NCBI GenBank assembly: GCA_963733035.1
Contig: CAVTBU010000008.1
Coordinates: 32,001-96,000 of the forward strand
Origin: Pirellulales bacterium
Lineage (GTDB): Bacteria; Planctomycetota; Planctomycetia; Pirellulales; PALSA-1355
Direction: 5' to 3'
DNA length: 64,000 bases
Positions 38,174 through 60,274 of the stretch are shown one piece after another. Positions within the stretch are counted from its first letter, which is position 1. Each line of letters starts with the position of its first letter. The notes beneath the pieces were generated by a model. The model searched no databases. It was not told where the DNA came from and worked only from the letters and a program-made list of their open reading frames with translations. Position numbers and translations under genes: made by a program.

Positions 38174-38255
38174 GGAGGGTAAGCGAATGGCTAGCGGCGA
38201 CACTGGAAATGTCGTGCCGGGTAACCGGTTGCGGGTTCGAGTCCCGTGCCCTCCG
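38174..38255 (+). tRNA. tRNA-Ser(GGA)
   Basis: Acceptor GGAGGGT/GCCCTCC; anticodon arm CGACA-CTGGAAA-TGTCG; long variable arm; T arm GCGGG-TTCGAGT-CCCGT; CCA not encoded. Confidence 0.93.
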
Positions 38256-38257
38256 CT
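38202..38257 (+). repeat. Left att core, 56-bp direct repeat (3' part of tRNA-Ser)
   Basis: ACTGGAAATGTCG...CCCTCCGCT is identical to 54932-54987. Confidence 0.95.
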
Positions 38258-40136: not shown

Positions 40137-41915
40137 TCATTCGGTCCGCGCGATCTCAATTTCGCGTCCACCATCGACACAGAAAATCCTAAAGCGCACG
40201 ATTGCCTTGTCGTGAATCGCAGTGGTCAGCTCAGCCAGCTCGCTGACAGCCTTGGCACGCTCGCGATTGATCGGCAATTCCGTCTGCATTTGGACAAACA
40301 AGGTTTTCGCGCGTTCAATCCGCTGCAGAGCAGCCGCTTTCAACGCCGCGACCTGTGGTGCCGCCATGTTATCACCATACCGAGCTACTAGTGCATTCAA
40401 GTCAGCGGTGGAATTTTTTACCTCAGCTTCTGCCACCGGTATACTGGCGACTTGCTTCTCAACCAGCGAGTTTAGCTGTCGCAGTAATGTCTGCACTCGG
40501 TCGACTGTCCACGCGTACTCCTTCCGGTCGAACGGCATCATTATTGGCTCGAACCGCACCTGTAAAATGGACTTCCCCGTACCTGACAAGGAGATTTCGA
40601 TGCCGGCCTGTGGCAGTTCATCACGAATTGCGATTCGCAACTTGGAGCCCACCTTTGCAACACGGTCGCTCGGATAGAATGCCCGGGCCGTTGCGCCTTC
40701 GATGCTCAACACTTCAACACGCAGTGAGCGCGGATCAGCTACATCGACGTGCGACAATGTAATTGGGATGGAAGTTTTCGATCGAGTCAGATCGACGGCG
40801 ATCCCTTTGAGAATCAACGTATTTTGACGGTCAACCGAGGGCTTTTGCGAGTCTTTTTTCGGCTGAACCGGCCTACCCATGTCGGGTGACAGTGGCAGCT
40901 GTGTCGGATTGCTCGGAAGAAGCTTCTCTTGGACCTCTCGCTTCAGATCCGGATGGACATCGAACTGTTCCATAAGTTCGTCTACCGCGCGGAGACCAAG
41001 TCGTGTAGCAAGTAAAGGCTTTGAGTCCTTAATTTTGATTGCCTCGCTAATAGCCATCTCGTACAGCACGTAGCGCATCCAATTCTGCTCTTGTGTTTTG
41101 GCCGCGTTCAAATAGTCTTCTGGGTTAAGTTCACCTTCGACGGTGATCGCCTTTCTGGCCTTTGCCTGCTGCTCCGGAGTGGGAACCGGGAGCTTGCCGT
41201 TCCCATTCAATCCCCTGGGTGGCCTCGCGGTGGGGACGACTGGAAGCGTTCTGCCCTTAGTCAATTCGGCAGTGGGTTGCGGCACGTTGCTTGGTACGTT
41301 GTCTTGCCTTGCTCGCGGATTTGGCCTGAGCTGTGGACTGTTTTCGCGAATGGGTTTGTTCTGCTTTTTTGGCAGACCGGCGACCTTTGTGGGGTTGGTC
41401 CCCTGCGGCCTTCCGAGGACCTTGTCAAAATCGATCAAAAACGTTGCCGTAATCACGGCAGCAATTATCGCTACACCGCCGATGATGATTGCAACACCGT
41501 GGTTGCTGCGCCGTCGACGGCGCGGTACCGCGCGTATTCGCGGTTCGACGAACGTTGCGGGTGCCTGAACCGGCGTCGTCGCGGCGACGGCCGGCAATGG
41601 CGATGCGGCAAAATGAGGTGGGGGAGTGATGTCTTCAGGCGGCGACAGCTTTCGACGCAGCTGCTGATCGTATTCCACCTTTGAGGTGGGATTCAACAAG
41701 CAGACTTTCGCGCGAGCTATCTCATTCAGGATCCGCTGCGAAAGCTCAGACTGCGGGCCAATCTTGTAGCTTTGGATGTGCGCCATCTGGCGCTCGCCGG
41801 CAGACTGTATCACTTCCCTGTCGGATTCAAAGTGCTCCAGACCAAGCAACCGATAGTGGTCAGGTGGCTGGTTTTCTGGCCGAATTCCCAGCCACTTGTA
41901 GTATGGATCGAACAC
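40137..41915 (-). CDS. Membrane-anchored protein with N-terminal J-domain-like region (no HPD) and C-terminal coiled coil
   Basis: FDPYYKWLGI...DHYRLLGL...LNEIARAKVCLLNP...EYD; one transmembrane segment; GTG start at 41915 with GGAGG upstream. Confidence 0.75.
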   Translation of the reverse strand: MFDPYYKWLGIRPENQPPDHYRLLGLEHFESDREVIQSAGERQMAHIQSYKIGPQSELSQRILNEIARAKVCLLNPTSKVEYDQQLRRKLSPPEDITPPPHFAASPLPAVAATTPVQAPATFVEPRIRAVPRRRRRSNHGVAIIIGGVAIIAAVITATFLIDFDKVLGRPQGTNPTKVAGLPKKQNKPIRENSPQLRPNPRARQDNVPSNVPQPTAELTKGRTLPVVPTARPPRGLNGNGKLPVPTPEQQAKARKAITVEGELNPEDYLNAAKTQEQNWMRYVLYEMAISEAIKIKDSKPLLATRLGLRAVDELMEQFDVHPDLKREVQEKLLPSNPTQLPLSPDMGRPVQPKKDSQKPSVDRQNTLILKGIAVDLTRSKTSIPITLSHVDVADPRSLRVEVLSIEGATARAFYPSDRVAKVGSKLRIAIRDELPQAGIEISLSGTGKSILQVRFEPIMMPFDRKEYAWTVDRVQTLLRQLNSLVEKQVASIPVAEAEVKNSTADLNALVARYGDNMAAPQVAALKAAALQRIERAKTLFVQMQTELPINRERAKAVSELAELTTAIHDKAIVRFRIFCVDGGREIEIARTE

Positions 41916-42059
41916 TTTTCTGTCGCCTCCGTTTTTGCGTGCGTCTCCTCTGCCCTGCTCGCAAGCCCGGCGGCTTAGCACCTTGCCATGATACGAGCGG
42001 GCTCTTAATTGATCAACCTGACCCGAATTGCGGTAGTGTCCTAACAGTGAGGTGGTCCC

Positions 42060-42299
42060 GTGATTGATACCTATCCGCGTCATATCTTGGAGCTGATCGC
42101 GGCCTGCCGCCAGAATCGTGGCCTGGACCCTCGCGACGTACTGGATGCAATCGACGATCCCCAGTGGGAGCGGGCTTGCCACACTAACGACTGGCGTTCT
42201 GTTGTCGTGGATTCCGTCGTCGATATATGGCCTTTTTTGGGGGTTGAGGCGAGGTTGGTGGCCTATCTAACTGCTTCTGTCGAGGTGGCGATTCAGTAA
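42060..42299 (+). CDS. Small hypothetical protein
   Basis: 79 aa, starts just inside the left TIR; DPQW...NDWR...IW pattern reminiscent of small phage proteins (from memory, unverified). Confidence 0.45.
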   Translation: MIDTYPRHILELIAACRQNRGLDPRDVLDAIDDPQWERACHTNDWRSVVVDSVVDIWPFLGVEARLVAYLTASVEVAIQ

Positions 42300-42789
42300 T
42301 CTTTTTGGCTTGCTTTCGGATGAAATCATCCAGATATCCTACCGCCAGCTCGATGGATTGTCTCGAAGCGTGCAGGCGCTTGTAACCGTAGATTCGCTTT
42401 ACAAATTCCCGAATTGCCTGAACCTGCTGTTCAATCTCGATGTCATCCAGCGAAACGACACGCGGATGGTGCGCTGCATGATTGCGAATTAGTCTGAGCG
42501 CATCGAGCAGGTCGCACACTTCGTGAGCCAGGAGGCCAAAGGCCCGGCACATGGTTATTTTCATGCCGAACGAATAGAGCGGCGACGTAAAGGTATCTAG
42601 CAGCCTGCCTCGGAGATCTGAGTTCAGTCCTTCTCTTGCAAAAGTCTCCCGTAAAAGATCCTCCATTCGATCGTTCAATACCTCGCATCCGATTAGAGGA
42701 CATGCACGATCGGAATCAGACCACATCGCGCTGGTCGTAAGTAGCCAATCCACTAAGGATTTCTTACGTCTATTTTTCTTGCCGCTCAT
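42184..42789 (-). CDS. MtlR-like HEPN-superfamily protein
   Basis: SDR...LLR, PLYSFGMKI...FGLL and IRNHAAH (R-X4-H) motifs. Confidence 0.7.
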   Translation of the reverse strand: MSGKKNRRKKSLVDWLLTTSAMWSDSDRACPLIGCEVLNDRMEDLLRETFAREGLNSDLRGRLLDTFTSPLYSFGMKITMCRAFGLLAHEVCDLLDALRLIRNHAAHHPRVVSLDDIEIEQQVQAIREFVKRIYGYKRLHASRQSIELAVGYLDDFIRKQAKKITESPPRQKQLDRPPTSPQPPKKAIYRRRNPRQQNASR

Positions 42790-42871
42790 ACGTTAGCCCC
42801 TTGGGCGTGGCGTAGTGCGGTCCCTGCCTTATACGCTCACGGATTCGGTGTGCAAATCACCGCACGTCCAT

Positions 42872-43039
42872 TCAGCGGCGTTTAGCGGCCTTTAGAAGCA
42901 CCTCACGCGCCCAGGTGGACGTGTTGCCGTCTGCGGCCTTCTCAAGCTGCTTTAGCTCGGATTCGCTCAAGCGAATCTGAAAGCGTATGTCGCGTCGCTC
43001 CGCGTCGTCTTTTGGGGGTCTACCCCTTTGTGATTCCAT
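42872..43039 (-). CDS. Ribbon-helix-helix DNA-binding protein, 55 aa (below the ORF-track cutoff)
   Basis: Hand translation: MESQRGRPPKDDAERRDIRFQIRLSESELKQLEKAADGNTSTWAREVLLKAAKRR*. Confidence 0.75.
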   Translation of the reverse strand: MESQRGRPPKDDAERRDIRFQIRLSESELKQLEKAADGNTSTWAREVLLKAAKRR

Positions 43040-43045
43040 GACAGG

Positions 43046-43105
43046 ATTGTACAGACAAAAAATATTCGTGCAAGCTATTTACCGCCGATTAAATGTCTGT
43101 ACAAT
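43046..43105. promoter_or_regulatory. Divergent promoter region with 12-bp inverted operator repeats
   Basis: ATTGTACAGACA (43046-43057) and TGTCTGTACAAT (43094-43105) in AT-rich DNA. Confidence 0.6.
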
Positions 43106-43248
43106 AAATTATGTTGGGAACGGCAATTCCCAATAAAAAACCCCGACTCGGCCCTGGCAGGCTGAATCGGGGGACAAACAACCAGGCTCTCGCTAGGCTG
43201 CTGTGACAAGCCAATTCTAGCGGAAGCCGTAACCAAGGCTACCCCGCG

Positions 43249-44283
43249 ATGATGATGATTGCTTGTGCCCATGCGACGTTCCAGAAATACGGCAAAGACC
43301 GCAAGGGAAACCAGCGGTTTAAGTGCTCGCTGTGCGGCAAGCGATGGACGGAAGAACACGCCAAGCCGCTCGGCGAGATGCGCGTGCCGGTCGAAACCGC
43401 CAAACTCGCGCTCCGTCTGCTGACGGAAGGCATGAGCATCCGCGCCACGGAACGCACAACCGGCTTGCACCGAGACACGATTTGCAAACTGCTGGTGTTA
43501 TTTGGCGATGCCTGCCAGCGGTTTTTAGACGAGCGTATGCGTGGGCTCACACTGTCTCATCTGCAATTCGACGAACAGTGGACTTACGTCTACAAGAAAC
43601 AATCTCGGCTCACCACGACCGAGCGCGAGCGATCGAGCGAGCAAGGCGATATGTACTTGTGGACGTGAGTGGACCAGAAAACGAAGCTCATGCCCGCGTT
43701 CCTGATCGGCAAGCGTTCGGCCGACAATGCCCGCCGTTTTATGATGGACGTTGCGAACCGGCTGGTGTTCCCAAAGCCGCACCAGAGCGATGACCAGAGC
43801 TATACAAAGCCTGGATACCAGCCCATTACTCAAATTTCGACGGATGGCTTCCCGGCCTACCCCGAGGCCGTGGACCTGGCTTTCGGTCCCTACGTCAAGT
43901 TCGGCACGATCATAAAGGAGTACCGCAACGCGAGCATGATCTATACGCCCTCAGAAATGGTCGGTACGAAGCGGACGGGCGTTCGCGGGATAAGCGGCCG
44001 GAACCAGCGGACGATATGTACCTCGCACGTGGAGAGGTTGAACGGCACCCAGCGGCTATTTATGAAGCGTCTCAACCGGTTGACCTACTGCTTTTCCAAG
44101 AAACTACGGAACCTGGACGCGGCATTCGCCATGTTCGCGGCCTACTACAACTTTTGCTGGCAGACCCGCAAGCCGGGCAAGTCGGGGCAGAAACGGGGGA
44201 CCGCCGCGATGATGGCTGGACTGGCCGGCCACGTGTGGAGCTTCGACGAACTATTCGATGAGGCAATTGCCAAAATTGCCTGA
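43249..44283 (+). pseudogene. IS1-family DDE transposase interrupted by an in-frame TGA at 43666-43668
   Basis: Zn ribbon (CSLC), HTH (GMSIRATERTTGL), QFDEQW, ISTDG, HVERLN and RLTYCFSKK; both halves are in the same frame. Confidence 0.88.
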
Positions 44284-44331
44284 CCCCCCGTTATGGTTGA
44301 AGCCGGACGCACATTCGAGTAGTCTGCTGGC

Positions 44332-44919
44332 ATGATTTGTCGAATCGCACGTATATCGGCCGTTTTGGTATATTTCGCATTATCTGCGGACGCGCCTGCG
44401 CAAGACATAATTCAATTTACAAATCCACCCGGAAATGGCACCGTTCAACTGCAAATATGGCCGATGTCGGTCGCAGGACCGCAAGCCAATTTCATCCTAA
44501 AGCCCGGTCAAAGCATGCCGGTTCAGCTAGTATCGCAGGGAAAATTCAACATCCGCAGCCTGCAATGGAGCCCAGACGGGAACACCTGCACTCGCTGGCT
44601 CGTACAGAATTTGGATCTCCATGCGATCGCAGATGGATCAGTCCTATCGATCAAGCTTTATGCATCTCGGGAAGCGATGTGGGAGCGATTTGATGGGCAA
44701 TACATGCAGGTGGCAGTGCCTCCAGGAGATTCAAAATGCATCTGGGAATTCACGACAATACCGACGGCGGTAGAATCACCTCCCCTGCTGGAGCCGATAG
44801 AAACAGAGCCTGCGCCTACCGGTGTGCAGCAGTACGCAACTGTTTCCATGCCAGCTGGATGCCCGGTAATTGGGCATGATCCGCCGAGAGAACCAAAAAT
44901 CCCAAAACGTAAAAAGTAG
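44332..44919 (+). CDS. Secreted hypothetical protein (IS passenger)
   Basis: Signal-peptide-like N-terminus ending APA-Q; 195 aa. Confidence 0.65.
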   Translation: MICRIARISAVLVYFALSADAPAQDIIQFTNPPGNGTVQLQIWPMSVAGPQANFILKPGQSMPVQLVSQGKFNIRSLQWSPDGNTCTRWLVQNLDLHAIADGSVLSIKLYASREAMWERFDGQYMQVAVPPGDSKCIWEFTTIPTAVESPPLLEPIETEPAPTGVQQYATVSMPAGCPVIGHDPPREPKIPKRKK

Positions 44920-44934
44920 CAGGAAGGGATTGAT

Positions 44935-45543
44935 ATGGGGTCCGACGCAATTTGGGAAAAGCTGATGTCTCTCAGCATCGTTGCCGGCATGAATCAGCGG
45001 TATTCGCAGTACATGCTGACTAAGGCGGAGTGGTTCAGTAGTGCGATAGACGTTGCGGTTGTTGTCTTTACTATGCTCACCTTGGTTTTCGGGGTGGCTG
45101 CCTATTACAAGCCCGGGAATCTGATGCCCTTATTGCCATATTGGTGGAGCGGAACTGGATGGGGCGTATGGCGTGTTAAGTATAGTCGAATGGCTATCGC
45201 GATGTCGTTGTTCGCTGCGCTCAGTGGTGTGGTGCTCGTTGTCGTGCCAACAAACAAGTCAGTTCATTTCTATAGCACGATGCTTCAAAGCTGGAGCGAC
45301 CTGAGGCAGGACATAGATTCCGCAATTGTCGATTCCGACTCGCACACATTGATTTCCAATGAGCACGGTGAAATGTACCTGGAAAGGCGATATCGCGACC
45401 TGCTGGCAAAAAAGAATGCTCTAAATGCAAGGGAGCCATCTCCCGACCAAGAGCTTCTTGAGCATTTCTTAACGCTGGAAGAGCGGTCGAGGTCGGCCCA
45501 AGATGAAATAGCCGACCAGAAACCAGTCGCACTAAGGGAATAG
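44935..45543 (+). CDS. Two-transmembrane protein, SLATT-like (IS passenger)
   Basis: N-terminal helix, two hydrophobic helices, helical C-terminal tail (WSDLRQDID). Confidence 0.55.
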   Translation: MGSDAIWEKLMSLSIVAGMNQRYSQYMLTKAEWFSSAIDVAVVVFTMLTLVFGVAAYYKPGNLMPLLPYWWSGTGWGVWRVKYSRMAIAMSLFAALSGVVLVVVPTNKSVHFYSTMLQSWSDLRQDIDSAIVDSDSHTLISNEHGEMYLERRYRDLLAKKNALNAREPSPDQELLEHFLTLEERSRSAQDEIADQKPVALRE

Positions 45544-45567
45544 ACAGAGGCAATTCAGAACCACAAC

Positions 45568-45594
45568 AGCCCCGGCCCCCTGCCGGGGCTTTTT
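45568..45594 (+). terminator. Rho-independent terminator
   Basis: AGCCCCGGC-CCCCT-GCCGGGGCT followed by TTTT. Confidence 0.8.
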
Positions 45595-45616
45595 CATGCG
45601 CGATAGAATGGTGCCT

Positions 45617-45751
45617 ATGAGCGAGATTCATTTCACCTATCACGCGTCTTCGACCTGGCTGCCGTGGGCTGGGGTTGCGTTTGGGCTGGCCATGATCATC
45701 GGCTGCTCCGTAGCACTCTGGCGTGGCAGACGCCGACCACCTCAGTCCTAG
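45617..45751 (+). CDS. Putative 44-aa single-transmembrane peptide ending in the right TIR
   Basis: Hand translation: MSEIHFTYHASSTWLPWAGVAFGLAMIIGCSVALWRGRRRPPQS*; TAGAAT just upstream. Confidence 0.45.
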   Translation: MSEIHFTYHASSTWLPWAGVAFGLAMIIGCSVALWRGRRRPPQS

Positions 45752-45802
45752 GACACTACCCGAATTGCATGGGGTTTTGGATTCTGATAGCCTTTTTCTG
45801 CC

Positions 45803-49275: not shown

Positions 49276-50895
49276 TCACCAGCCATACATTTCATTTGGC
49301 AACATCAACGGCCGGGGTGCGGGACACTGAATAACCTCTTCGATGTGCATGACGGATGGTCCGCACCGCATCGCGTCCGCGGCAATGGGGATTGCGATCG
49401 ACAACGCTATCGCTCGGTCCGCGTGGCCCAAGATCTTGTCGCTGGGGGCCGTTAGCTTATAGCCGTAGCTCTTCTCGACAATTTGCAGCCGGCACAGATC
49501 AGTAATCAGGTCGGGCTCGCGATACAGTTCGACGGTTCGGCCACGAAACGCTTGCAGCAGCGTGCTTGCCATTGTGTCGAGATGCTTGCCGATGAAGGGA
49601 ACTTCAAGCATGTTCACGCCGTCACGTCGTAGCGACTGCGACATAAAGCTGGCTTGGTGAGGATCGTAGCCGATCGTCAATCCTCGAAACCGACGGGACG
49701 CCTCAAGCACGCAGTCCTTGACTAGCAACAGATCGACTTCGCCGCCGGGCTCAGGCGCCGAACTTTGGCAGTCGGCAAGATACATTCGCTCCGTGTCGCT
49801 ATCGACGGCCAGGACGACTAGGGCCGCGTGATCGCGCTTCACCCCAAGATCCAGGCCGGCCACATAACCGAATCGACCAGCGTAGTCTTCGATTGGACCG
49901 TCAAGCGTGATTGCGGCCTCGATATCTGCGACGTCCAGGCAATCGCCGCCGGAACTCCAGACCCCTCCGAACAGGCGATTGAAACGACTGGCGGTGCTTC
50001 GACGTCGGGCATCCTCGATGCCGGCAGGATCGTGATAGGGCGCAGGGCCCGTAATCGTTCGGAATTGCCAGCGTTCGGGCTGAGACTGCACTGCTTCGCG
50101 GAGTCGATATTGCCACGAGTCGACGTTGCCCGCGTTCATGGCAAGCATGACAAGTCCGTGGGGAACCTTTTCAGAGTTGTCCAACAAATTGAACACAAAT
50201 TCTTCTGAAACGATGCACGTCAGTTCATCGACGAAAAGCGCGTCGGGTAGCGCGCCTTGGCTTCCGGCTTCGTCGGCGGGAATGATTTCGGCGAGCGCCT
50301 CAGTGTCGGAGCACACGATTTGCCACTTGTCGACACGGACCCGGTTCGCAAGCCATGGCATCGCCTGGGTGATCTTGACGGCCGCCATCCGTACTTCAGC
50401 CGCTTGGTCTTTGTCCGCGGCCGCAATTTGAATCCGCAGCATGCGGCGTGAAAACGCGATCATCCACAGCACGGTCAAAGCGATCATCCACGATTTGGCG
50501 TAACCTTTGGTTGCCTCCAACCAGAACCGACGAATTGGGGCGGGTCGTCCCTGCATCGCGGCAATGGCGGCGGGCTCAAGCGCAACCAGCATGTCGCGCT
50601 GGGCGGGCACTTTGACGTCGCCGAAACGGCGCAGACCGGTAGCGGTGTGCACGGGCATGTCGTCCGCAAAATCCGCCAGGCTGCCGCGGTAGTGAGCAAT
50701 CTGATCCGGGGTCAGGTTTCGCATGGCTTGTAAACGCCGGGCAACCGCCACGCCTGGAGGGAGACGCAGCAGCGCCCAGCGCGCAAAAGTTTTAGTTGGG
50801 CTGGTGTGTCTCGGGTGACTGCGAATTGCCGCTAGGGCCGATTTGCTGGCCTCCAGGCTGCTTGCCGTCAGAGGTTGAGCTTTCATGCAATCCAT
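49276..50895 (-). CDS. Terminase large subunit-like protein
   Basis: TKGYAKS (Walker A variant), AAADKDQA, LFVDEL (Walker B); RNase H-like AGLDLGVKRD, GYDPHQA and HADRAIAL; alternative start 50724. Confidence 0.85.
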   Translation of the reverse strand: MDCMKAQPLTASSLEASKSALAAIRSHPRHTSPTKTFARWALLRLPPGVAVARRLQAMRNLTPDQIAHYRGSLADFADDMPVHTATGLRRFGDVKVPAQRDMLVALEPAAIAAMQGRPAPIRRFWLEATKGYAKSWMIALTVLWMIAFSRRMLRIQIAAADKDQAAEVRMAAVKITQAMPWLANRVRVDKWQIVCSDTEALAEIIPADEAGSQGALPDALFVDELTCIVSEEFVFNLLDNSEKVPHGLVMLAMNAGNVDSWQYRLREAVQSQPERWQFRTITGPAPYHDPAGIEDARRRSTASRFNRLFGGVWSSGGDCLDVADIEAAITLDGPIEDYAGRFGYVAGLDLGVKRDHAALVVLAVDSDTERMYLADCQSSAPEPGGEVDLLLVKDCVLEASRRFRGLTIGYDPHQASFMSQSLRRDGVNMLEVPFIGKHLDTMASTLLQAFRGRTVELYREPDLITDLCRLQIVEKSYGYKLTAPSDKILGHADRAIALSIAIPIAADAMRCGPSVMHIEEVIQCPAPRPLMLPNEMYGW

Positions 50896-51845: not shown

Positions 51846-53393
51846 TTAATTTTCATCGTCCACGACCCTGTAACCTTCGTAGCGGCGGCTGTTGGCCTTC
51901 GCGATTTCACACGGCTCCAGGTGGCCGGCGTCAAGCGCGGCGGCGAGCGCGGCGTCAAACGCTTGACCGTTGCGGCCGGTACGGGCGCGAATGTCTGTTT
52001 TGGTGCCTTGGTGGCCCGGCAGCTTGTGGCAGGCTTCGACAACCAGTTGCACGTCGCGCTCGAGCCCCTCGGCGCGCTTCTGGTCGGCCCGCTGTTCTTT
52101 GGCGGCCTCGGCCATGTCCGCGATGGCTGACGGCTCGAGGACCAATACGTGCCAGGTGCGGTTGCTGCCGGTGCCTTCGCAGATCTGCAAGCCGTGTAAG
52201 CCGCTGTGGCCAGCGCTGCCGCCGGTGACCATCCACAAGTGGTGCTCGCCGGTACCGGGCTCGTAGTCGCGTCTGCGGCTCAAGAGAAGCCATTGCCGGG
52301 CCCATTCGCTGGTACCGCTCCAAGAGACTTGCGTTAGCTCGGGCGGTGCGTGACGATTGTCGATGCCGCTTTTGCGAATGTGGTGGACCACGACCAGCGT
52401 GATGCCGATCTCTTCGCACATGCCTGACAGTTGACGTAGCTGCCGGCCGACTGCCATGAGGTTGCCGGCGTCGGCTGCGGCCAGCATGAAATACAGTGGG
52501 TCCACGATGGCAATTTCGATTCGTTCGCGCACCAGTGCACGGCGCAGGGCGGCCAGTTCGTCGGCGGCGTCGAGCCTGGGCACGACTGTGGTCCAAAACA
52601 AATTGCCAAGCTGGGCCAGCGTGGTGCCTTGGGCTGACGCGATGCGTTCCCCTGTTTCCCGCAGCGTCGAGCCGCCGCTTTCAGCGTTTGCGATCAGCAC
52701 GCGATAGGGTCGGGCGACTGAAAACCGGCCGAGAAACGGCTCGCCGCTGGCCAGGGCGATGCCCATCGCGACGCAGATCGTGCTTTTCATGCCCTTCAAC
52801 TGGGCTGCCACAACCATGGGCTGCCGTTCGGCCAGGATGCCTTCGATTGCGTACGTCGCTACATCATTTGTCGCGGCGAACGCAGGGCTGGGTGTCACGT
52901 CGATGCGAAACCCTTGGCTGTCGGCGGCGATGCCGTCCAGGTTGTCGCGGTGGTGGGCGTATGCTTCAGCGAATGGCTTCACTCGCAGATCTCGCAGAAA
53001 CGCCACGCCACTAAGATATCCCTCGCGTTTTGCTCGACAGTCGCGTGCCACGCGCAAGTAGTACGACGTGTTCGACGGCAGCGCATCGCCTGTGATGATC
53101 TCCGCCAGTTTCGCGGCGCCGCCGACGGCTTTGAGTCGGTCGGTGCGGGTCAATTCGCGGTGCAGGTTCGTCAGGTCAACGGGCTGCAGGTTCTCGCGTA
53201 GGGCCGCCATCGCCCCGAAGATTTCCGCATGCGGTTCGTGGTGAAAATCGGCGGCTTCGATTTGATGCTCGTCGATCACCCTAGGCAGCAGTAGACATGA
53301 TCGCAAGAGCATCTGCTCGCAGTGCTCGTCGCTGGGCATGCCCGCATCGAGAATCTCGCCATTTGTCCGGGCGCCGGCGCCGTTTTGCTTCAT
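51846..53393 (-). CDS. Replication helicase: DnaB N-terminal domain fused to AAA_25 (RepA-like) ATPase
   Basis: EQMLL...DF...HAEIF...PVD...VGG N-domain; AQLKGMKS, IVDPLY and VVHHIRK motifs. Confidence 0.85.
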   Translation of the reverse strand: MKQNGAGARTNGEILDAGMPSDEHCEQMLLRSCLLLPRVIDEHQIEAADFHHEPHAEIFGAMAALRENLQPVDLTNLHRELTRTDRLKAVGGAAKLAEIITGDALPSNTSYYLRVARDCRAKREGYLSGVAFLRDLRVKPFAEAYAHHRDNLDGIAADSQGFRIDVTPSPAFAATNDVATYAIEGILAERQPMVVAAQLKGMKSTICVAMGIALASGEPFLGRFSVARPYRVLIANAESGGSTLRETGERIASAQGTTLAQLGNLFWTTVVPRLDAADELAALRRALVRERIEIAIVDPLYFMLAAADAGNLMAVGRQLRQLSGMCEEIGITLVVVHHIRKSGIDNRHAPPELTQVSWSGTSEWARQWLLLSRRRDYEPGTGEHHLWMVTGGSAGHSGLHGLQICEGTGSNRTWHVLVLEPSAIADMAEAAKEQRADQKRAEGLERDVQLVVEACHKLPGHQGTKTDIRARTGRNGQAFDAALAAALDAGHLEPCEIAKANSRRYEGYRVVDDEN

Positions 53394-54931: not shown

Positions 54932-54987
54932 ACTGGAAATGTCGTGCCGGGTAACCGGTTGCGGGTTCGAGTCCCGTGCCCTCCGCT
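54932..54987 (+). repeat. Right att core (duplicated tRNA-Ser 3' part)
   Basis: 56/56 identity to 38202-38257. Confidence 0.95.
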
Positions 54988-55436: not shown

Positions 55437-56851
55437 ATGAAACAAGACGCCGCTACCGCACCGCGCCAGGAATCCACAGCCGATCAGCGCGGGTCCTTGC
55501 CGGTGGAGTTCGTTCGCGTGACGGCTCCAATTGCCATTGTCGTGGGCGGGTTCGTAGCGTTCTTCGGACTAGCCCGTCTGAAGCAGGACCCCGCGCGGCG
55601 CGAGAGCAGGCCTTGGCACCGATGGTCGAAACCATCGAAGTGGCACCACATCGAGGTGGGCTCGACATCTCCGTCGATGGCGTCGTCGTGCCGTTTCGCG
55701 AAATCGACCTGTCGGCGGAAGTTTCCGGCCGCATCGCCAAGAAATCAGACCTGTGCCGAGCCGGTACCTACGTGACTCGTGGCACGCCGCTCATCGCGAT
55801 CGACTCGCGCGATTACCAACTTGAGGTCGATCGGCTGGAGCGAGAGCTGTCCCAAGCGGCGGTGTCGCTCCAAGAGCTCGACGTCGAATACTCGAACAAC
55901 CAGTCACTTCTGAAACTCGCCAAGGACCAATTGGCTCTGCAGAGGCGAGAACTCGAACGGCAAAGGTCTCTGGCTACGAAGAAGATTGTCACCGACTCCG
56001 ATCTCGACAAAACCAAGCGTGACGAGTTGGCGGCGGTCAACGCGGCAATGACGCTTTCCAATGAGCTGCAATTGCTCACGACGCGTCGCAATCGATTGGA
56101 AAACGCGCGCGACTTGTGGCGATCGCAACTCGAACGGGCCCAGCTCGACCTGCAGCGGACCAAGGTCGCCGCTCCGATCGACGGGGTGATCATTCGCGAA
56201 ATGGTCGAGGAAGACTCCTACGTACAAAAGGGCACCTCGTTGGCGAAGATCGAGGACACGTCCGCCGTCGAAGTAAAGTGCAATTTGCGCATGGAGGACC
56301 TGTATTGGCTGTGGTCTCAGGGACGTGGCGATGATCACGCCCAAGCGGCCGCAAGCGCGACACGTGACTACCAGATTCCGCAGGCCCCGGTCACCGTGTA
56401 CTACGAATTGGGTGGCCACCGCTATGAGTGGGGAGGCATCTTGTCGCGCTTCGACGGCATTGGCGTTGACGAGCGTACTCGTACCGTGCCGTGCCGCGTG
56501 CTGGTTGCCGAGCCTCGCAAAGTAACGATTAAGGATGTCGGCGACGGCGATGCCGGCGCGGTCGGCCCACCGGCTCTGGTTCGCGGAATGTTCGTCACCG
56601 TCGACGTCCACGCGCAGCCCTCGACCGTGCTGCTGGAGATTCCGCAGCGAGCGGTCCAGCCGGGCAACACGGTTTGGCAGGTCGTAGGCGGCACACTGCG
56701 TATCCGCAAAGTGCGCGTCGCCGACGCCGAGGGGGATCTGGTTCTGATATACACCGATCCGTCCGGGCTCCAGCCGGGCATGAAACTGGTCAGTTCGCCA
56801 TTGGCGATGGCCACCGACGGCATGGCGGTGCGGGAGCAGACGCCACAATGA
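55437..56851 (+). CDS. RND efflux periplasmic adaptor subunit, apparent frameshift near 55605
   Basis: Transmembrane anchor in one frame; SAEVSGRI, APIDGVI and RTRT in the next. Confidence 0.85.
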
Positions 56852-59800
56852 AATCGCTCGTCCAGTGGGCCGTTCGCAACACGCCCGCCATGAACACGCT
56901 CATGATCGCGTTCATGGTCGTCGGCGCATTCAGTCTCTACAAAATGCGCCGCGAGGTATTTCCCGAGTTTGATCTCGAGATCATCTTGGTCACGGTGCCC
57001 TATCCCGGTGCCAGCCCGGACGAAGTGGAAGAGGGCATCTGCCAAAAGATCGAGGAGGCGGTTCGCTCCATCGAGGGCATCAAATACCAGACCTCGATTG
57101 CTCAGGAGGGCGCCGGACATGTCGTCCTGGAGCTTGAAGCCGACGTGAAGGACGTGCAAAAGATCCTCAACGAGGTCCGCTCCGAGGTCGACCGCATTCC
57201 CAGCTTTCCGGAACTTGCCGAGGAGCGGGAAGTCAAGCAAATCACGATGCGCGAGCCGGTCATTCAGGTCGGCATCATCGGCCCGGACAGAAAGGACATG
57301 GCCGCCGAACTCCATCTGCGCGATGTCGCCGAGCAAGTACGAGAGGATTTGTTGCAGCAGCCGGCTGTCTCGCAAGCCACGATCATTGGAGCCCGCGAAT
57401 ACCAAATCGACGTTGAAATACCGGAAGAAACGCTGCGCAAGTACGGGCTGTCACTGACGCGAGTGGCCGACATTATCCGCCGCGAGAACGTTGAAATCCC
57501 AGGCGGTACGATGCGCACCGATGCGCAAGAAGTGTTACTGCGCGGCAAGAACAAACGCAGCATCGGCGAGGAACTGCTTGAAATCCCACTCGTGACCGCG
57601 CCGGGCGGCGTCGTGCTCCGTGTGGGTGATCTCGGAACCGTTCGCGATGAGTTCGACGATACGATCACCTCGATTAGTCGCATTAACGGACAACCCGGAC
57701 TTGTCATCTCCGTCGAGCGCACGACGAGCGAAGACCTGCTGGCCATGGTCGACGATGTAAGGCGCTACGTATCCGCGAAGACGCTGCCCCCGGGCTACAA
57801 ATTGGCGGTGTGGGGCGACCAGTCGATCGAAGTCTCCGACCGCCTGAATATGCTGGCTAAAAACGGCATTCAGGGACTGATCCTCGTGTTCGTGCTGCTA
57901 GCGATTTTTCTCGACTTGCGATTGGCATTCTGGGTTGCTTTGGGCATTCCCGTAGCCATTCTTGGCACGTGCGCCGTTTTATATTTTGGCGGTCATACGC
58001 TAAACATGCTCACCAGTTTTGCGTTCCTGATGGTCCTTGGCATTCTGGTAGACGACGCGATCGTGGTCGGCGAAAATATCTACGCTCACCGGCAGCGCGG
58101 CAAGGGATTCTTGCAGGCGGCCGTTGAAGGCGCAGAGGAAGTGCTGCCCAGCGTTGCCGCATCGGTGGTTACCACCGTCATCGCCTTTATGCCGCTGCTG
58201 TATGTGGCCGGCGTGATGGGCAAGTTTCTGGGCGTGATGCCCGTGGCGGTGATCGCGGCACTGCTGATTTCGCTCACCGAGGCGACTTTCGTGCTGCCAT
58301 GCCACTTGAGTCATGCCCCTCCGGCCGAGGACTTTCTTACACGTTGTCGCCGCTGGCGACGCACGATGTCGGCTCCCTTGCAATTGACGTTGGGCAATGC
58401 CCTGGTGCTGTTTGCCTTTGTCATGACCCAGTTTTTTTATCCGCTGCGGCGGCTTGGCGACTTGTTTCACTGGCTGAACGTGAGGTCGTCTCGAGTGCTC
58501 GACGGGTTCATCAATCGGATCTATCGTCCTTCGTTGCGGTGGGCGATCGACCATAGCGCCATCACACTTTCCGCCTGCTTTGCACTGTTGTGCTTATCGT
58601 TGGGACTCGTCGCTTCCGGGCATCCACCCTTTAACGTCTTTCCCCGCCTTGACAGCAAGCAGATTACTTCCAGCATCGTCTATCCTGACGGCACACCCGC
58701 CACGGTCACCGACGCCGCGACGGCCCAGATCGAAAAGGCGATCCTCGAGCTCGGTGAAAAGTACAAGGCCCACGACGGTTCGTCCGTCGTTCGCTACGTG
58801 CACAAGAAGGTTGGAGAAGTGACCACGATGGGTTCGCGGCCCCGACACGCGCACCAACGGCAGCCATGTCGGCGGCGTCGATGTCGAACTGGCCGATAGC
58901 AGAGAACGAGACGTGCGGAGCGATACCATCATCGCCGAGTGGCGAAAGCTCGCGGGCGATTTCCCAGGAGCCGAAAGCGTTACCTATGGTACACCCAACT
59001 TTGGGCCCGGTGGTCGCCCCATTGAGTTCAAGCTGTTGGCCGACGCGGAAGACATGACAAAATTGGAAGCCGCGATCGAGGAAACCAAGGCCAAGTTGGC
59101 CGAATACGGCGGTGTGTTTGATATCTCCGATGACTCACGTCCCGGAAAGTGGGAGTTTCAGCTCCGTGTTAAGCCCAGCGCCATGTCGATGGGGGTTCCT
59201 CTGGCTGATTTGGCCGAAACGGTTCGCGCTTCCTATTACGGCGAAGAAGTCATGCGATTGCAGCGCGGTCGACATGAAGTCAAGCTGATGGTTCGCTATC
59301 CGCGGGAAGACCGTCGCTCCTTGGCCGATTTCGAGGAAATCCGGGTCCGCACTTTCGACGGCGCCGAGCGGCCCATTACCGAGTTGACCGACGTGAACGT
59401 GGCCCGCGGATTCTCGGAAATCAACCGCATCGAGCAGCGACGCTCGATCACCATTACTGCCGACGTCGACGAAACCACCGGCAACGCGTACAGCATCGTC
59501 AGCGACCTGCGCTCCAGCTTCATGCCAGACTTGCTCAAACGCTATCCGGGAGTGGGCGTTTTGTGGCAGGGCCAACAGGAGCGCACCACCGAGTCCATTG
59601 ACAGTTTGCTGATTGGGCTGCTCATCGCGCTGATCGCGATGTTCGTGCTCCTCACGGTCGAATTCCGGTCGTATCTGCAGCCGCTGATGATCATGGCGAT
59701 CATTCCGTTCGGCATCATCGGCGCCATCTGGGGACATTTCCTGCAGGGCATGGAAATGACGATGTTCAGCTTGTTTGGCCTTGTGGCCCTGACAGGCGTC

Positions 59801-60274
59801 GTCGTGAATGACTCGATCGTGCTGATCGATTTCATCAATCATCGCGTTCGTGACGGGCTGGCGATCAAAGACGCGCTGGTCGACGCCGGCGCTCAGCGCT
59901 TCCGGCCCGTCATGTTGACCAGCGTCACGACGGTCGCCGGACTATTGCCAATTCTGCTCGAACGGTCGTTCCAGGCTCAGATTGTGATTCCGATGGCAAC
60001 CAGCCTTTGCTTTGGCTTGATCATGGCGACCGGCTTGGTGCTGTTCTTGATTCCGGCGCTATACTACATCTATGCTCTGATGAGTGGGGGTGGGGCGCAC
60101 GCGCCCAAGAACGACGAGCACCCGGCCCCCCAAGGCGGTCCGACCGAAGCTTGGACGGCCGACGATCCTGAGCTTTCGCACGGCGACCATGAGCGCCCAC
60201 TGGCTGAAAGTGAGTTGTTGGGTCCGCACCGGCGGCCGCGGGCCGACCATGTTGGGTCCGTTTCTCACGACTGA
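56848..60274 (+). CDS. RND efflux permease (AcrB family), apparent frameshift near 58837
   Basis: YPGASPDEVE and GILVDDAIVVGEN; second frame has GVVVNDSIVL and RFRPVMLTS. Confidence 0.9.

Follow-up and report, generated by a model that had tools for sequence, protein, structure and literature searches.

A probable transporter insertion sequence with an IS1-related transposase and exchangeable passengers, in part of conflict type, in a Pirellulales genome

Elements that resemble insertion sequences (IS) and carry passenger genes have received a name of their own, transporter IS (tIS), in the available passages of PMC9330008, PMC7986276 and 10.1101/2021.05.26.445724, the second of which places them in "a number of IS families". 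The subject of the present work is an element of this kind, located at positions 42032-45760 of a 64,000-nucleotide stretch of DNA from a Pirellulales bacterium (contig CAVTBU010000008.1, positions 32,001 to 96,000; "the window" refers hereafter to this whole stretch). It is read here, with a probability of about 0.8, as a tIS whose transposase is a relative of that of IS1, whose conserved core is shared by dozens of elements, and whose passengers are most likely of conflict type. Inside IS-like inverted repeats it carries, as a tIS does, passengers unrelated to transposition, and it works like an IS1-type tIS, that is, like a representative of an already named category. As for IS1 itself, the classical subgroup encodes InsA and InsB' in two open reading frames (ORFs) joined by a -1 frameshift, and the ISMhu11 subgroup has a single long ORF and sizes of up to ~4.6 kb, which would imply passengers; the literature searched contained no paper naming ISMhu11.

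Ends, target duplication and transposase

The element comprises 3,729 bp, accommodates five or six passengers and is bounded by 26-bp inverted repeats with 3 mismatches (23/26 identical). The left repeat (IRL; 42032-42057, + strand), GGTAGTGTCCTAACAGTGAGGTGGTC, begins with GGTAGTG, and the right repeat (IRR; 45735-45760, - strand), with GGTAGTGTCCTAGGACTGAGGTGGTC as its reverse complement, pairs with it. Immediately outside them, the 8-bp target-site duplication CGAATTGC stands at 42024-42031 and, as an exact match, at 45761-45768. A first, sequence-only reading of the window had proposed ends with these features and an exact duplication enclosing 3,729 bp; both are confirmed in coordinates and sequence, and all the ORFs that it named are found in the ORF listing. 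The IRL/IRR pair is the longest, and listed first, of 120 inverted pairs given by a repeat finder between 41800 and 46000. Used as a 24-mer pattern with at most 3 mismatches, the end has three forward and three reverse matches in the 6.65-Mb assembly, the reversed control giving 0 and 0, whereas the 12-base end tip alone is uninformative (15 matches with at most 1 mismatch vs 14 in the control). A chance origin of the end pair is excluded by this genome-wide count together with the 48 of 79 related loci that could be delimited, as described below.

The insertion point is the 150-bp spacer of a divergent gene pair within a tRNA-Ser island, 8 bp of which were duplicated. There is an analogue of the empty site in a genome of the same genus, where the orthologous divergent pair, with an Hsp70-family gene showing 72% amino acid identity to that of the window, is ~120 bp apart with no element between the two genes.

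The transposase (43249-44283, + strand) is built of a zinc finger, a helix-turn-helix (HTH) and a DDE domain. It is present as named in the sequence-only reading, which overlooked a premature in-frame TGA at 43666-43668 (codon 140). Among 39 aligned transposases, the column of this codon holds Cys in 35, Gly in 2 and Ala in 1, the stop being confined to the window copy. Residues D108, D199 and E262 are invariant or nearly so in the same alignment and are taken here to be the putative DDE triad, on the basis of local IS1 motifs. The TGA lies between D108 and D199, the frame being open on both sides of it, and the 139-aa truncated product retains the zinc finger and the HTH with a single catalytic residue. 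Since the stop replaces a conserved Cys between the first and the second catalytic Asp, the window copy is probably non-autonomous. Its mobilisation in trans by an intact relative in the same genome (G000:C5) is plausible, because the IRLs of the two elements differ at only 1 of 26 positions (25/26 the same).

Regarding the family, the IS1 transposase model is the best NCBIfam match both for the window copy, which reaches 76.9 bits (with X at the stop) against a transpos_IS1 cut-off of 100, and for 6/6 relatives tested. Both the window copy and 5/6 relatives exceed the cut-off of the model NF050000 (IS1/IS1595 zinc domain), and no IS1595 model is present among the NCBIfam matches of the window copy and the 6 relatives. 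A single open frame without stops occurs in 37/48 of the delimited relatives' elements, with no InsA/InsB' two-ORF layout, and the two-part frame of the window results from a TGA within the same frame, not from a frameshift. IS1 elements have GGnnnTG ends and an 8-9-bp duplication; the element agrees with GGTAGTG and 8 bp, and 48/79 loci do likewise. To judge by its best profile match, its ends and its duplication, the element is related to IS1, if distantly in its transposase, whose score does not reach the curated cut-off of the family; the earlier label "IS1-family" is borne out in the sense of an IS1-related element with passengers inside its ends.

These data also have to be set against other explanations. 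It could be argued that the cargo lies outside any transposon, the repeats being paired by chance or else the far ends of two decayed insertions on either side of ordinary island genes. The genome does contain solo or degenerate ends, at C4:91643 and at C6:941-945 kb, but the exact 8-bp duplication on both outer flanks, which is found likewise in 48/79 relatives and on two plasmids, and the same-genus genome with the flanking genes ~120 bp apart without the element make this explanation hardly credible. It is also very unlikely that the window copy is autonomous, with the TGA read through or decoded as selenocysteine to make a full-length transposase. The stop stands exactly where 35/39 relatives carry Cys, in the classic Cys/Sec pattern, and the reading frame is uninterrupted on either side; yet the 38 other transposases of the alignment are all without a stop there, a single base change converts a Cys codon to TGA, and, what makes a selenocysteine reading unlikely, no tRNA-Sec was found among the 96 tRNAs detected by ARAGORN in the assembly, which is 92% complete. 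Finally, does the element belong to IS1595 or to an unclassified family instead of IS1? IS1595 also makes 8-bp duplications and has passenger-bearing members, the zinc domain is common to both families, and the IS1 score is under the cut-off. The assignment is nonetheless improbable in view of the NCBIfam results, with IS1 best in 6/6 and no IS1595 model, of the Pfam domain DDE_Tnp_IS1, precomputed on many homologues, of the IS1 labels given to homologues by their sources, and of the ends, which fit GGnnnTG.

Relatives of the element and their passengers

A search with the intact transposase of the second copy gives 3,455 homologues (E<=1e-3) out of 4,418 candidates. The top 120 homologues are 72-84% identical and ~340 aa long; those that are named appear as "IS1 family transposase" of Pirellulales or Planctomycetota. 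The scan of one genome per species gave 79 loci (L numbers below), mostly with planctomycete labels (Planctomycetota, Planctomycetia, Planctomycetaceae, Pirellulales), a few labelled only "bacterium" and one Solirubrobacterales. For delimitation, the end tip was sought with at most 3 mismatches on both sides of the transposase, and a pair of at least 19/26 plus an exact 8/8 duplication was required. A search by end motif and transposase homologue had been suggested in the sequence-only reading, and it delimits 48 of the 79 loci by matching ends and an exact 8-bp duplication; of the remaining 31, 21 have no candidate pair (mostly with the end beyond the contig) and 10 have poor pairs only. The resulting 50 elements (these 48 and the two own copies) measure 1,805-6,993 bp, with a median of 3,754. 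Their left arm, from IRL to the transposase start, exceeds 1 kb in 49/50, and their right arm is <=60 bp in 18/50 and >300 bp in 30/50.

The second element of the same genome (G000:C5:1179095-1184417, corresponding to L009:5096-10418) has 5,323 bp, the same ends and an exact duplication, GAATCTCG, and encodes a ribbon-helix-helix (RHH) protein and an intact 341-aa transposase in a core whose DNA is 82% identical to that of the window. Its cargo is wholly different from that of the window, with a membrane-like ORF and a second, small one, and with a pair formed by an unknown gene and an XRE-type HTH gene. On plasmids, relatives are found in 23 records at <60% identity (best 33%), several of them annotated as "IS1 family transposase". 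A Hoeflea plasmid carries a 4,224-bp element with the ends GGTAGTGTCTCAGTTTGAA (22/24), the duplication gatgattg (8/8) and, as cargo, an XRE-family regulator and several hypothetical genes, and on an Acidiphilium plasmid there is a 2,634-bp element whose ends agree at 20/24 positions and whose duplication is aagccgag (8/8). These two alphaproteobacterial plasmids, L098 (NZ_CP011481.1) and L099 (NZ_CP041717.1), show a near-identical end tip, GGTAGTGTCTCA, together with 8-bp duplications and passengers.

What the elements share beyond their ends is a core in which the RHH gene is on the strand opposite to the transposase in 41/50, lying 17-286 bp upstream of it in 40/41; in L022 a group II intron separates both genes. 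From one element to another, unrelated modules fill the stretch from IRL to the RHH gene and often also that from the transposase to IRR. One and the same module occupies the left slot in L033 and the right one in L009, and SocA genes occupy the right slot of L049 and the left slot of L020 and L063. Cargo families that are shared show 24-66% identity where the transposases of the same elements show 61-81%, with the exception of one methylase family (85-89% identical). An RHH-transposase core with variable cargo on both sides, proposed by the sequence-only reading from the window copy, is a trait of the family across the delimited elements.

To describe this cargo, ORFs were called greedily (at least 50 aa, longest first), a procedure that sometimes picks the antisense strand, for instance over the RHH gene, and gives rough counts: 337 ORFs in the 50 elements, falling into 234 clusters. 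Pfam (E<=1e-3) matched 44 of the 289 non-transposase ORFs, and 31 of these 44 are conflict-type, none being housekeeping. They comprise DNA methylases (5 ORFs), SocA/Panacea, GmrSD, XRE-type HTH and PIN (3 ORFs each), PemK/MazF and protein kinases (2 ORFs each), and a single ORF each of Fic, Mrr_cat, NYN, ParE, KilA-N, Bro-N, DUF4145, peptidase M78, GNAT and DUF1828, while the other 13 named ORFs are 4 core RHH, 2 nested mobile elements, 3 DUF6941 and 4 others. For control, 150 ORFs were drawn at random from 309 called alike in the flanks of 33 loci; 62/150 were Pfam-named, mostly metabolic or envelope functions, and 6 to 9 were conflict-type. Among named ORFs, conflict-type ones make up 31/44 in the cargo vs 9/62 in the flanks (p = 5e-9). 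PADLOC was applied to 150 hand-trimmed cargo ORFs from 35/50 elements (the other 15, L069-L094, being outside the scan), a set that leaves out RHH, antisense and most <60-aa ORFs and includes two alternative ORFs. It matched 20 of them, in 13 elements, many of the matches being to generic domains; examples of matched models are HEC-09 (8e-73), HEC-06 (~1e-47, two ORFs), PD-T4-6 kinases (2e-40), PDC-S13 (1e-79), SoFic (8e-19) and several methylases.

Some further observations on this family may be recorded here. An IS3-family element with two ORFs (L009:8075-9360) is nested between the unknown gene, of 173 aa, and its XRE-type neighbour, a pair that is adjacent and uninterrupted in L033; other nested mobile elements in relatives are a group II intron reverse transcriptase/maturase (L022:3875-5248) and a Mutator-family transposase (L016:3723-4970). 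DUF6941 proteins belong to the cargo of L035, L065 and L083, and in L035 and L065 they are encoded beside a PemK or ParE toxin gene. A RES/Xre toxin-antitoxin pair stands immediately beyond the right end of the element on the Acidiphilium plasmid. In the genome of the window itself, a 673-bp derivative without transposase (G000:C5:1768206-1768878), with both family ends, the exact duplication GGCATCCG and the right-end hairpin/TAGAAT motif described below, is a relative of the element resembling a miniature inverted-repeat transposable element. Four copies of the right-end motif and several degenerate end-like sequences (4-6 mismatches) at G000:C6:941704-945509 have the look of right ends that have decayed in an array. 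At G000:C10:211887-211920 two end tips are opposed with 10 bp between them, in a 34-bp palindrome-like site with no clear duplication, and a solo right end with the subterminal motif, for which no partner was found, is at G000:C4:91458-91643.

Control region and passengers of the window copy

In the window, the putative 55-aa RHH gene (42872-43039, - strand) diverges from the transposase. It is recognised by weak Pfam matches, both below cut-off (NikA-like E 0.026, RHH_7 E 0.042), and by a family hidden Markov model built from 13 clustered copies, and members of the family give NikA-like matches at 3.3e-6 and 1.3e-5. A separate RHH outside the cluster, in L020, matches RHH_1 at 2e-5. Between the two genes there is a back-to-back promoter-like region (43046-43105), to which a function is assigned by sequence: one promoter-like pair points to the RHH gene (- strand; -10 at 43051-43046, -35 at 43074-43069) and the other to the transposase (+ strand; -35 at 43078-43083, -10, TACAAT, at 43100-43105). 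The arrangement TTGAC-N17-TACAAT toward the transposase is conserved in an alignment of 51 sequences, and a TAnnnT -10 hexamer precedes the ATG of the RHH gene by 4-10 nt in 30/34 elements examined, a distance which suggests that the RHH mRNA is leaderless.

Upstream of the transposase start codon lies a structured leader (43137-43254, + strand), defined by folding and by a covariance model. It contains a hairpin, H1 (43141-43172), preceded by an A-run (43135-43140), a long helix, P2 (43185-43193 with 43220-43228, + strand), and a conserved unpaired ATTCTA (43214-43219; TAGAAT on the - strand) that is at least 90% conserved at four positions. The window leader folds at -54.9 kcal/mol (z = -3.3), with 0/200 shuffles as stable. 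The covariance model, made from 12 leaders with H1 and P2 (20 pairs), was searched in 73 sources, namely the window, L009, 67/79 loci and L096-L099; the 12 loci left out of this set (L042, L046, L071, L074, L079, L082, L084, L086, L087, L088, L091 and L093) have matches without the transposase N-terminus. It matches 68/73 sources at E<=1e-8, each time over its whole length and immediately before the start codon. The other five sources are L017, with a weak match (E 0.0023), L031, with no leader match at E<=0.01 and a transposase match beginning 30 bp from the contig end, L096, and the alphaproteobacterial plasmid elements L098 and L099, which the planctomycete leader model does not match.

The alignment of these 68 leaders is fitted to the model, which favours structure, and the controls with slid partners carry the same bias. 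Standard pairs occupy 92.3% of its cells vs 70.4% in shuffles and 33-44% with partners slid; 17/20 pairs are changed on both sides vs 12.3 in the control, and so are 243 cells vs 67 +/- 6, a number that 0/500 shuffles reach. RNAalifold on a plain MAFFT alignment of 45 leaders gives 7 pairs only, the alignment by covariance model being needed. With regard to the strand, P2 shows 43 G-U vs 9 A-C, an excess on the + strand that argues for its formation in the transposase mRNA, and H1, with 33 vs 54, leans to the - strand, where the hairpin is followed by a T-run. This strand lean, the A-run and the conserved TAGAAT box point to an antisense transcript of ~70 nt that may start near TAGAAT and end at H1. 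No Rfam match was obtained in 42000-45800 at E<=1, and the leader is a candidate for a new cis-regulatory RNA acting on the transposase. Near the other end, at 45557-45638 (+ strand), an nhmmer profile identifies a subterminal motif made of a G+C hairpin with a T-run followed by CATGCGCGATAGAAT, which 6/50 elements share, in each case on the + strand at a distance of 122-463 bp from IRR; L097 has it as well, and there are 9 sites with it in the own genome. Among sequencing runs, a single DNA run contains the sampled words, at a share of 0.05, and no RNA run containing them is listed.

The left slot of the window copy accommodates a 201-aa HEPN/MtlR-like protein (42184-42789, - strand) with an R-N-x3-H motif (R102, N103, H107) and a 79-aa ORF (42060-42299, + strand) that converges on its gene, overlaps its 3' end and is a candidate partner. 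The former has 644 homologues at E<=1e-3 in an exhaustive search (another search gave 1), and in 66 aligned homologues R102, N103 and H107 are the sole invariant columns, in agreement with the R-x4-H of HEPN and with the wider R-x4-6-H. The homologues match (E<=0.01) DUF4145 in 33/66 and MtlR in 29/66 cases (best 3e-17), as well as Abi_2 (8) and HEPN_RiboL-PSP (7), while the query itself, with 17.8 bits, does not reach the DUF4145 Pfam cut-off of 23.1. Its AlphaFold model is helical (pLDDT, the predicted local distance difference test, 90.8), and the best folds are MtlR (6kcr_C at E 8e-4, and 3brj), with probability 1.0 and a target-normalised template-modelling score of 0.66, and YggD, the prophage HEPN nuclease HepS ranking lower (probability 0.89). 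The invariant R-N-H columns, the Pfam matches of the homologues and the MtlR folds all bear out the HEPN/MtlR call already made from the letters of the window. The 79-aa ORF has no family match in Pfam, NCBIfam, PADLOC or PHROGs, and a homologue 58% identical to it occupies the same position in L064 (4808-4999), beside a HEPN homologue that is only 33% identical to that of the window. This conservation in position argues that both genes are real and form a module. Complex prediction for the HEPN-like domain and the 79-aa ORF gave no verdict (score 0.00 vs a mark of 0.32). The left module would consist, on this evidence, of a putative HEPN/MtlR-like RNase and a 79-aa partner.

The right slot begins with a 195-aa protein (44332-44919, + strand) that has, by eye, a signal-peptide-like N-terminus and ends with DPPREPKIPKRKK. 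It has no family match in Pfam, NCBIfam, PADLOC, ESM Atlas or PHROGs, its best ESM Atlas neighbour, with a score of 0.85, belonging to no family. It is followed by a 202-aa helical protein (44935-45543, + strand), for which the name "SLATT-like" had been suggested. This has 12 homologues and an all-helical model (pLDDT 80), and its nearest ESM Atlas clusters are SLATT_4/5, with a score of 0.92; no SLATT match of the query appears up to E 1 among Pfam SLATT_1-6, SLATT_fungal and DUF4231, and of 11 family members one matches SLATT_fungal at 0.051 and one DUF4231 at 0.049. The name is therefore not borne out by a Pfam SLATT domain in the query and remains a lead from a language model. With this query, a sample of 400 further genomes of the phylum gave no match to the 202-aa protein. 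In the metagenomic L096 and L097, exported-looking proteins of ~190 aa that end in DPPR(E/K)P(K/R)(I/L)P precede homologues of the 202-aa protein, in the position of the 195-aa protein and with the same C-terminal motif; the BLASTP match of the latter to the L096 equivalent is not significant (E 0.52), and with the L097 equivalent the C-terminal motif alone aligns (E 8e-5). In L097 these two genes follow immediately on an RHH gene, a leader and a transposase of IS1 type that is only 36% identical, which argues that the right-hand module recurs in a distant member of the family. At L096:4419-6352 the same pair occurs without an IS1-like transposase, with an RHH gene resembling those of the family ~500 bp away. 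The slot is closed by a 51-aa hydrophobic micro-ORF (45596-45751, + strand) beside the right end, without protein homologues in the loci or the genome; a small membrane-like ORF occupies the same place in the second element (L009:10088-10366). The right module looks, from these sequences, like an exported protein and a helical one, the latter membrane-bound by appearance.

If the parts of the element act as they appear to, its transposase would, as other DDE enzymes do, cut and join at the GGTAGTG ends, the divergent promoters would be repressed by the RHH protein, helix P2 would fold in the transposase mRNA, and H1 with its T-run would terminate a short antisense transcript begun at the TAGAAT box. 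The window copy would move only with transposase supplied by the intact relative at G000:C5. Its two two-gene modules would act as toxin-antitoxin or abortive-infection-type systems, protecting the host or stabilising the element, such conflict systems being what the modules most likely are to judge from their sequences.

Several points weigh against the reading of the element as a tIS with conflict-type passengers. The transposase frame of the window copy is broken by the TGA, and the IS1 scores of the relatives, from 66 to 98.5, are below the NCBIfam curated cut-off of 100 bits. There is no near-identical second copy in the genome, so recent movement in it is not demonstrated, the only other core being 82% identical. 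As regards the cargo, 245/289 ORFs have no Pfam match, with a greedy caller that picks some wrong strands; over all ORFs, the conflict-type share is 31/289 in the cargo vs 9/150 in the flanks (p = 0.12); PADLOC matches 20/150 cargo ORFs vs 12/150 flank ORFs (p = 0.19), or 14 vs 7 at E<=1e-10 (p = 0.17); and the cargo of the window matches no PADLOC model. Promoters, antisense RNA, RHH repression and cargo function have, moreover, been read from sequence alone. The proposal of a mobile carrier of defence genes consequently stands in part: the Pfam-named cargo is rich in conflict-type genes compared with the flanks, but PADLOC shows no significant enrichment and leaves the window cargo unmatched. 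The sequence-only reading would have given up its proposal had the relatives shown no enrichment of defence domains, and on this the outcome is neither a clean pass nor a clean failure, with a strong difference among named ORFs and a PADLOC difference that is not significant.

Are the passengers, then, addiction modules that serve the element by punishing the loss of the transposon or of its island or plasmid, so that "defence carrier" is the wrong label? This is a serious possibility, if one held at somewhat less than even odds. The named cargo is mostly PIN, MazF/PemK, ParE, Fic, SocA/Panacea and methylase-endonuclease pairs, the PADLOC enrichment over the flanks is weak, and a comparable association of toxin-antitoxin pairs with Tn3-family transposons has been published, according to the part of PMC7157771 available. 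Against it, some of the cargo matches reported anti-phage systems (HEC-09, HEC-06, PD-T4-6, PDC-S13 and SoFic), and addiction and defence are roles compatible with each other. A bolder extension of the tIS reading, which is put forward tentatively and is rather doubtful as a whole, would see in these elements an IS1-derived gene-shuttle platform in Planctomycetota and beyond, with a three-part control (leaderless RHH repressor, leader absent from Rfam, antisense RNA), two slots for conflict systems and, in the window, a truncated zinc-finger/HTH product acting as an InsA-like inhibitor of the intact relative. If true, such a platform would be a transposon counterpart of defence islands or integron cassettes.

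Host island and comparison with known systems

The tRNA-Ser gene at 38174-38256 has its 3' part repeated exactly (38202-38257 = 54932-54987, 56 bp), which bounds an island of 16.7 kb. Between 38202 and 54987 there are an integrase (profile search), a terminase-large-like ORF (49279-50895; phrog_9 at 3e-18), a DnaB-N/AAA_25 primase-helicase-like ORF (51849-53393; profile match) and a 604-aa J-domain-like ORF (40140-41951), recognised by eye and with no Pfam or PHROGs match, from which the Hsp70-family gene diverges; the remaining ORFs are without matches, and no helper phage is known for the island. That the island is a phage satellite is a fair guess from its gene content, so that the earlier "nested in the satellite" is right about an integrated island with integrase, primase/helicase-like and terminase-like genes and plausible only about the satellite identity. 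Just 34 bp (45769-45802) separate the right duplication from the Hsp70-family start codon; because so little is left, the native promoter of this gene was probably displaced by the insertion, and the gene may rely for its expression on read-out transcription from the element. Elsewhere in the window (56674-60271), two consecutive ORFs of 741 aa (model positions 8-484) and 453 aa (636-1019) correspond to an AcrB-family transporter; either the gene is split or frameshifted, or the sequence is in error.

The interest of the element lies mostly in the size of its family, its control region and the turnover of its cargo, and not in this broken copy. IS1, among the insertion sequences studied best, is taught as a minimal element, and a large clade of IS1 relatives that bears passengers, routinely carrying 1-5 kb of exchangeable toxin-antitoxin, restriction, kinase and unknown genes, would add a route for the movement of conflict systems within and between the genomes of a poorly studied phylum, the 245 cargo ORFs without a Pfam match being a list of candidate systems. 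The literature searched, outside of which are ISfinder and most subscription papers, gave general tIS reviews only and no description of the clade, its RHH gene, its leader or its cargo.

With IS1, the element has in common the order zinc finger-HTH-DDE, the best NCBIfam model, the GGTAGTG ends and the 8-bp duplication. It differs from it in the single 340-aa ORF, in contrast to the two frameshift-joined ORFs of classical IS1, in a size of 1.8-7 kb with passengers vs ~0.8 kb, in the score under the curated cut-off, and in the presence of a separate divergent RHH gene and a structured leader. A parallel for the control region is offered by IS10, whose transposase is under antisense control by RNA-OUT: provided that TAGAAT is a real promoter and H1 a real terminator, an RNA of ~70 nt would be transcribed antisense to the leader of the transposase, although the sequences are unrelated and the predicted antisense RNA would not cover the start codon. 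The toxin-antitoxin transposons of the Tn3 family, as described in the part of PMC7157771 available, are alike in having toxin-antitoxin genes built in beside the transposition genes, and unlike in their transposase family, the element studied here having no resolvase and having two slots with cargo turnover. The closest category is that of the tIS, as the available passages on them define it, with which the element shares the IS-type inverted repeats, the one transposase, the target duplication and the passengers within the ends. The TnCentral passage restricts tIS to IS1595 and IS66, whereas the present element is IS1-like, and in its family passengers are the rule (left arm >1 kb in 49/50) and the cargo is highly variable.

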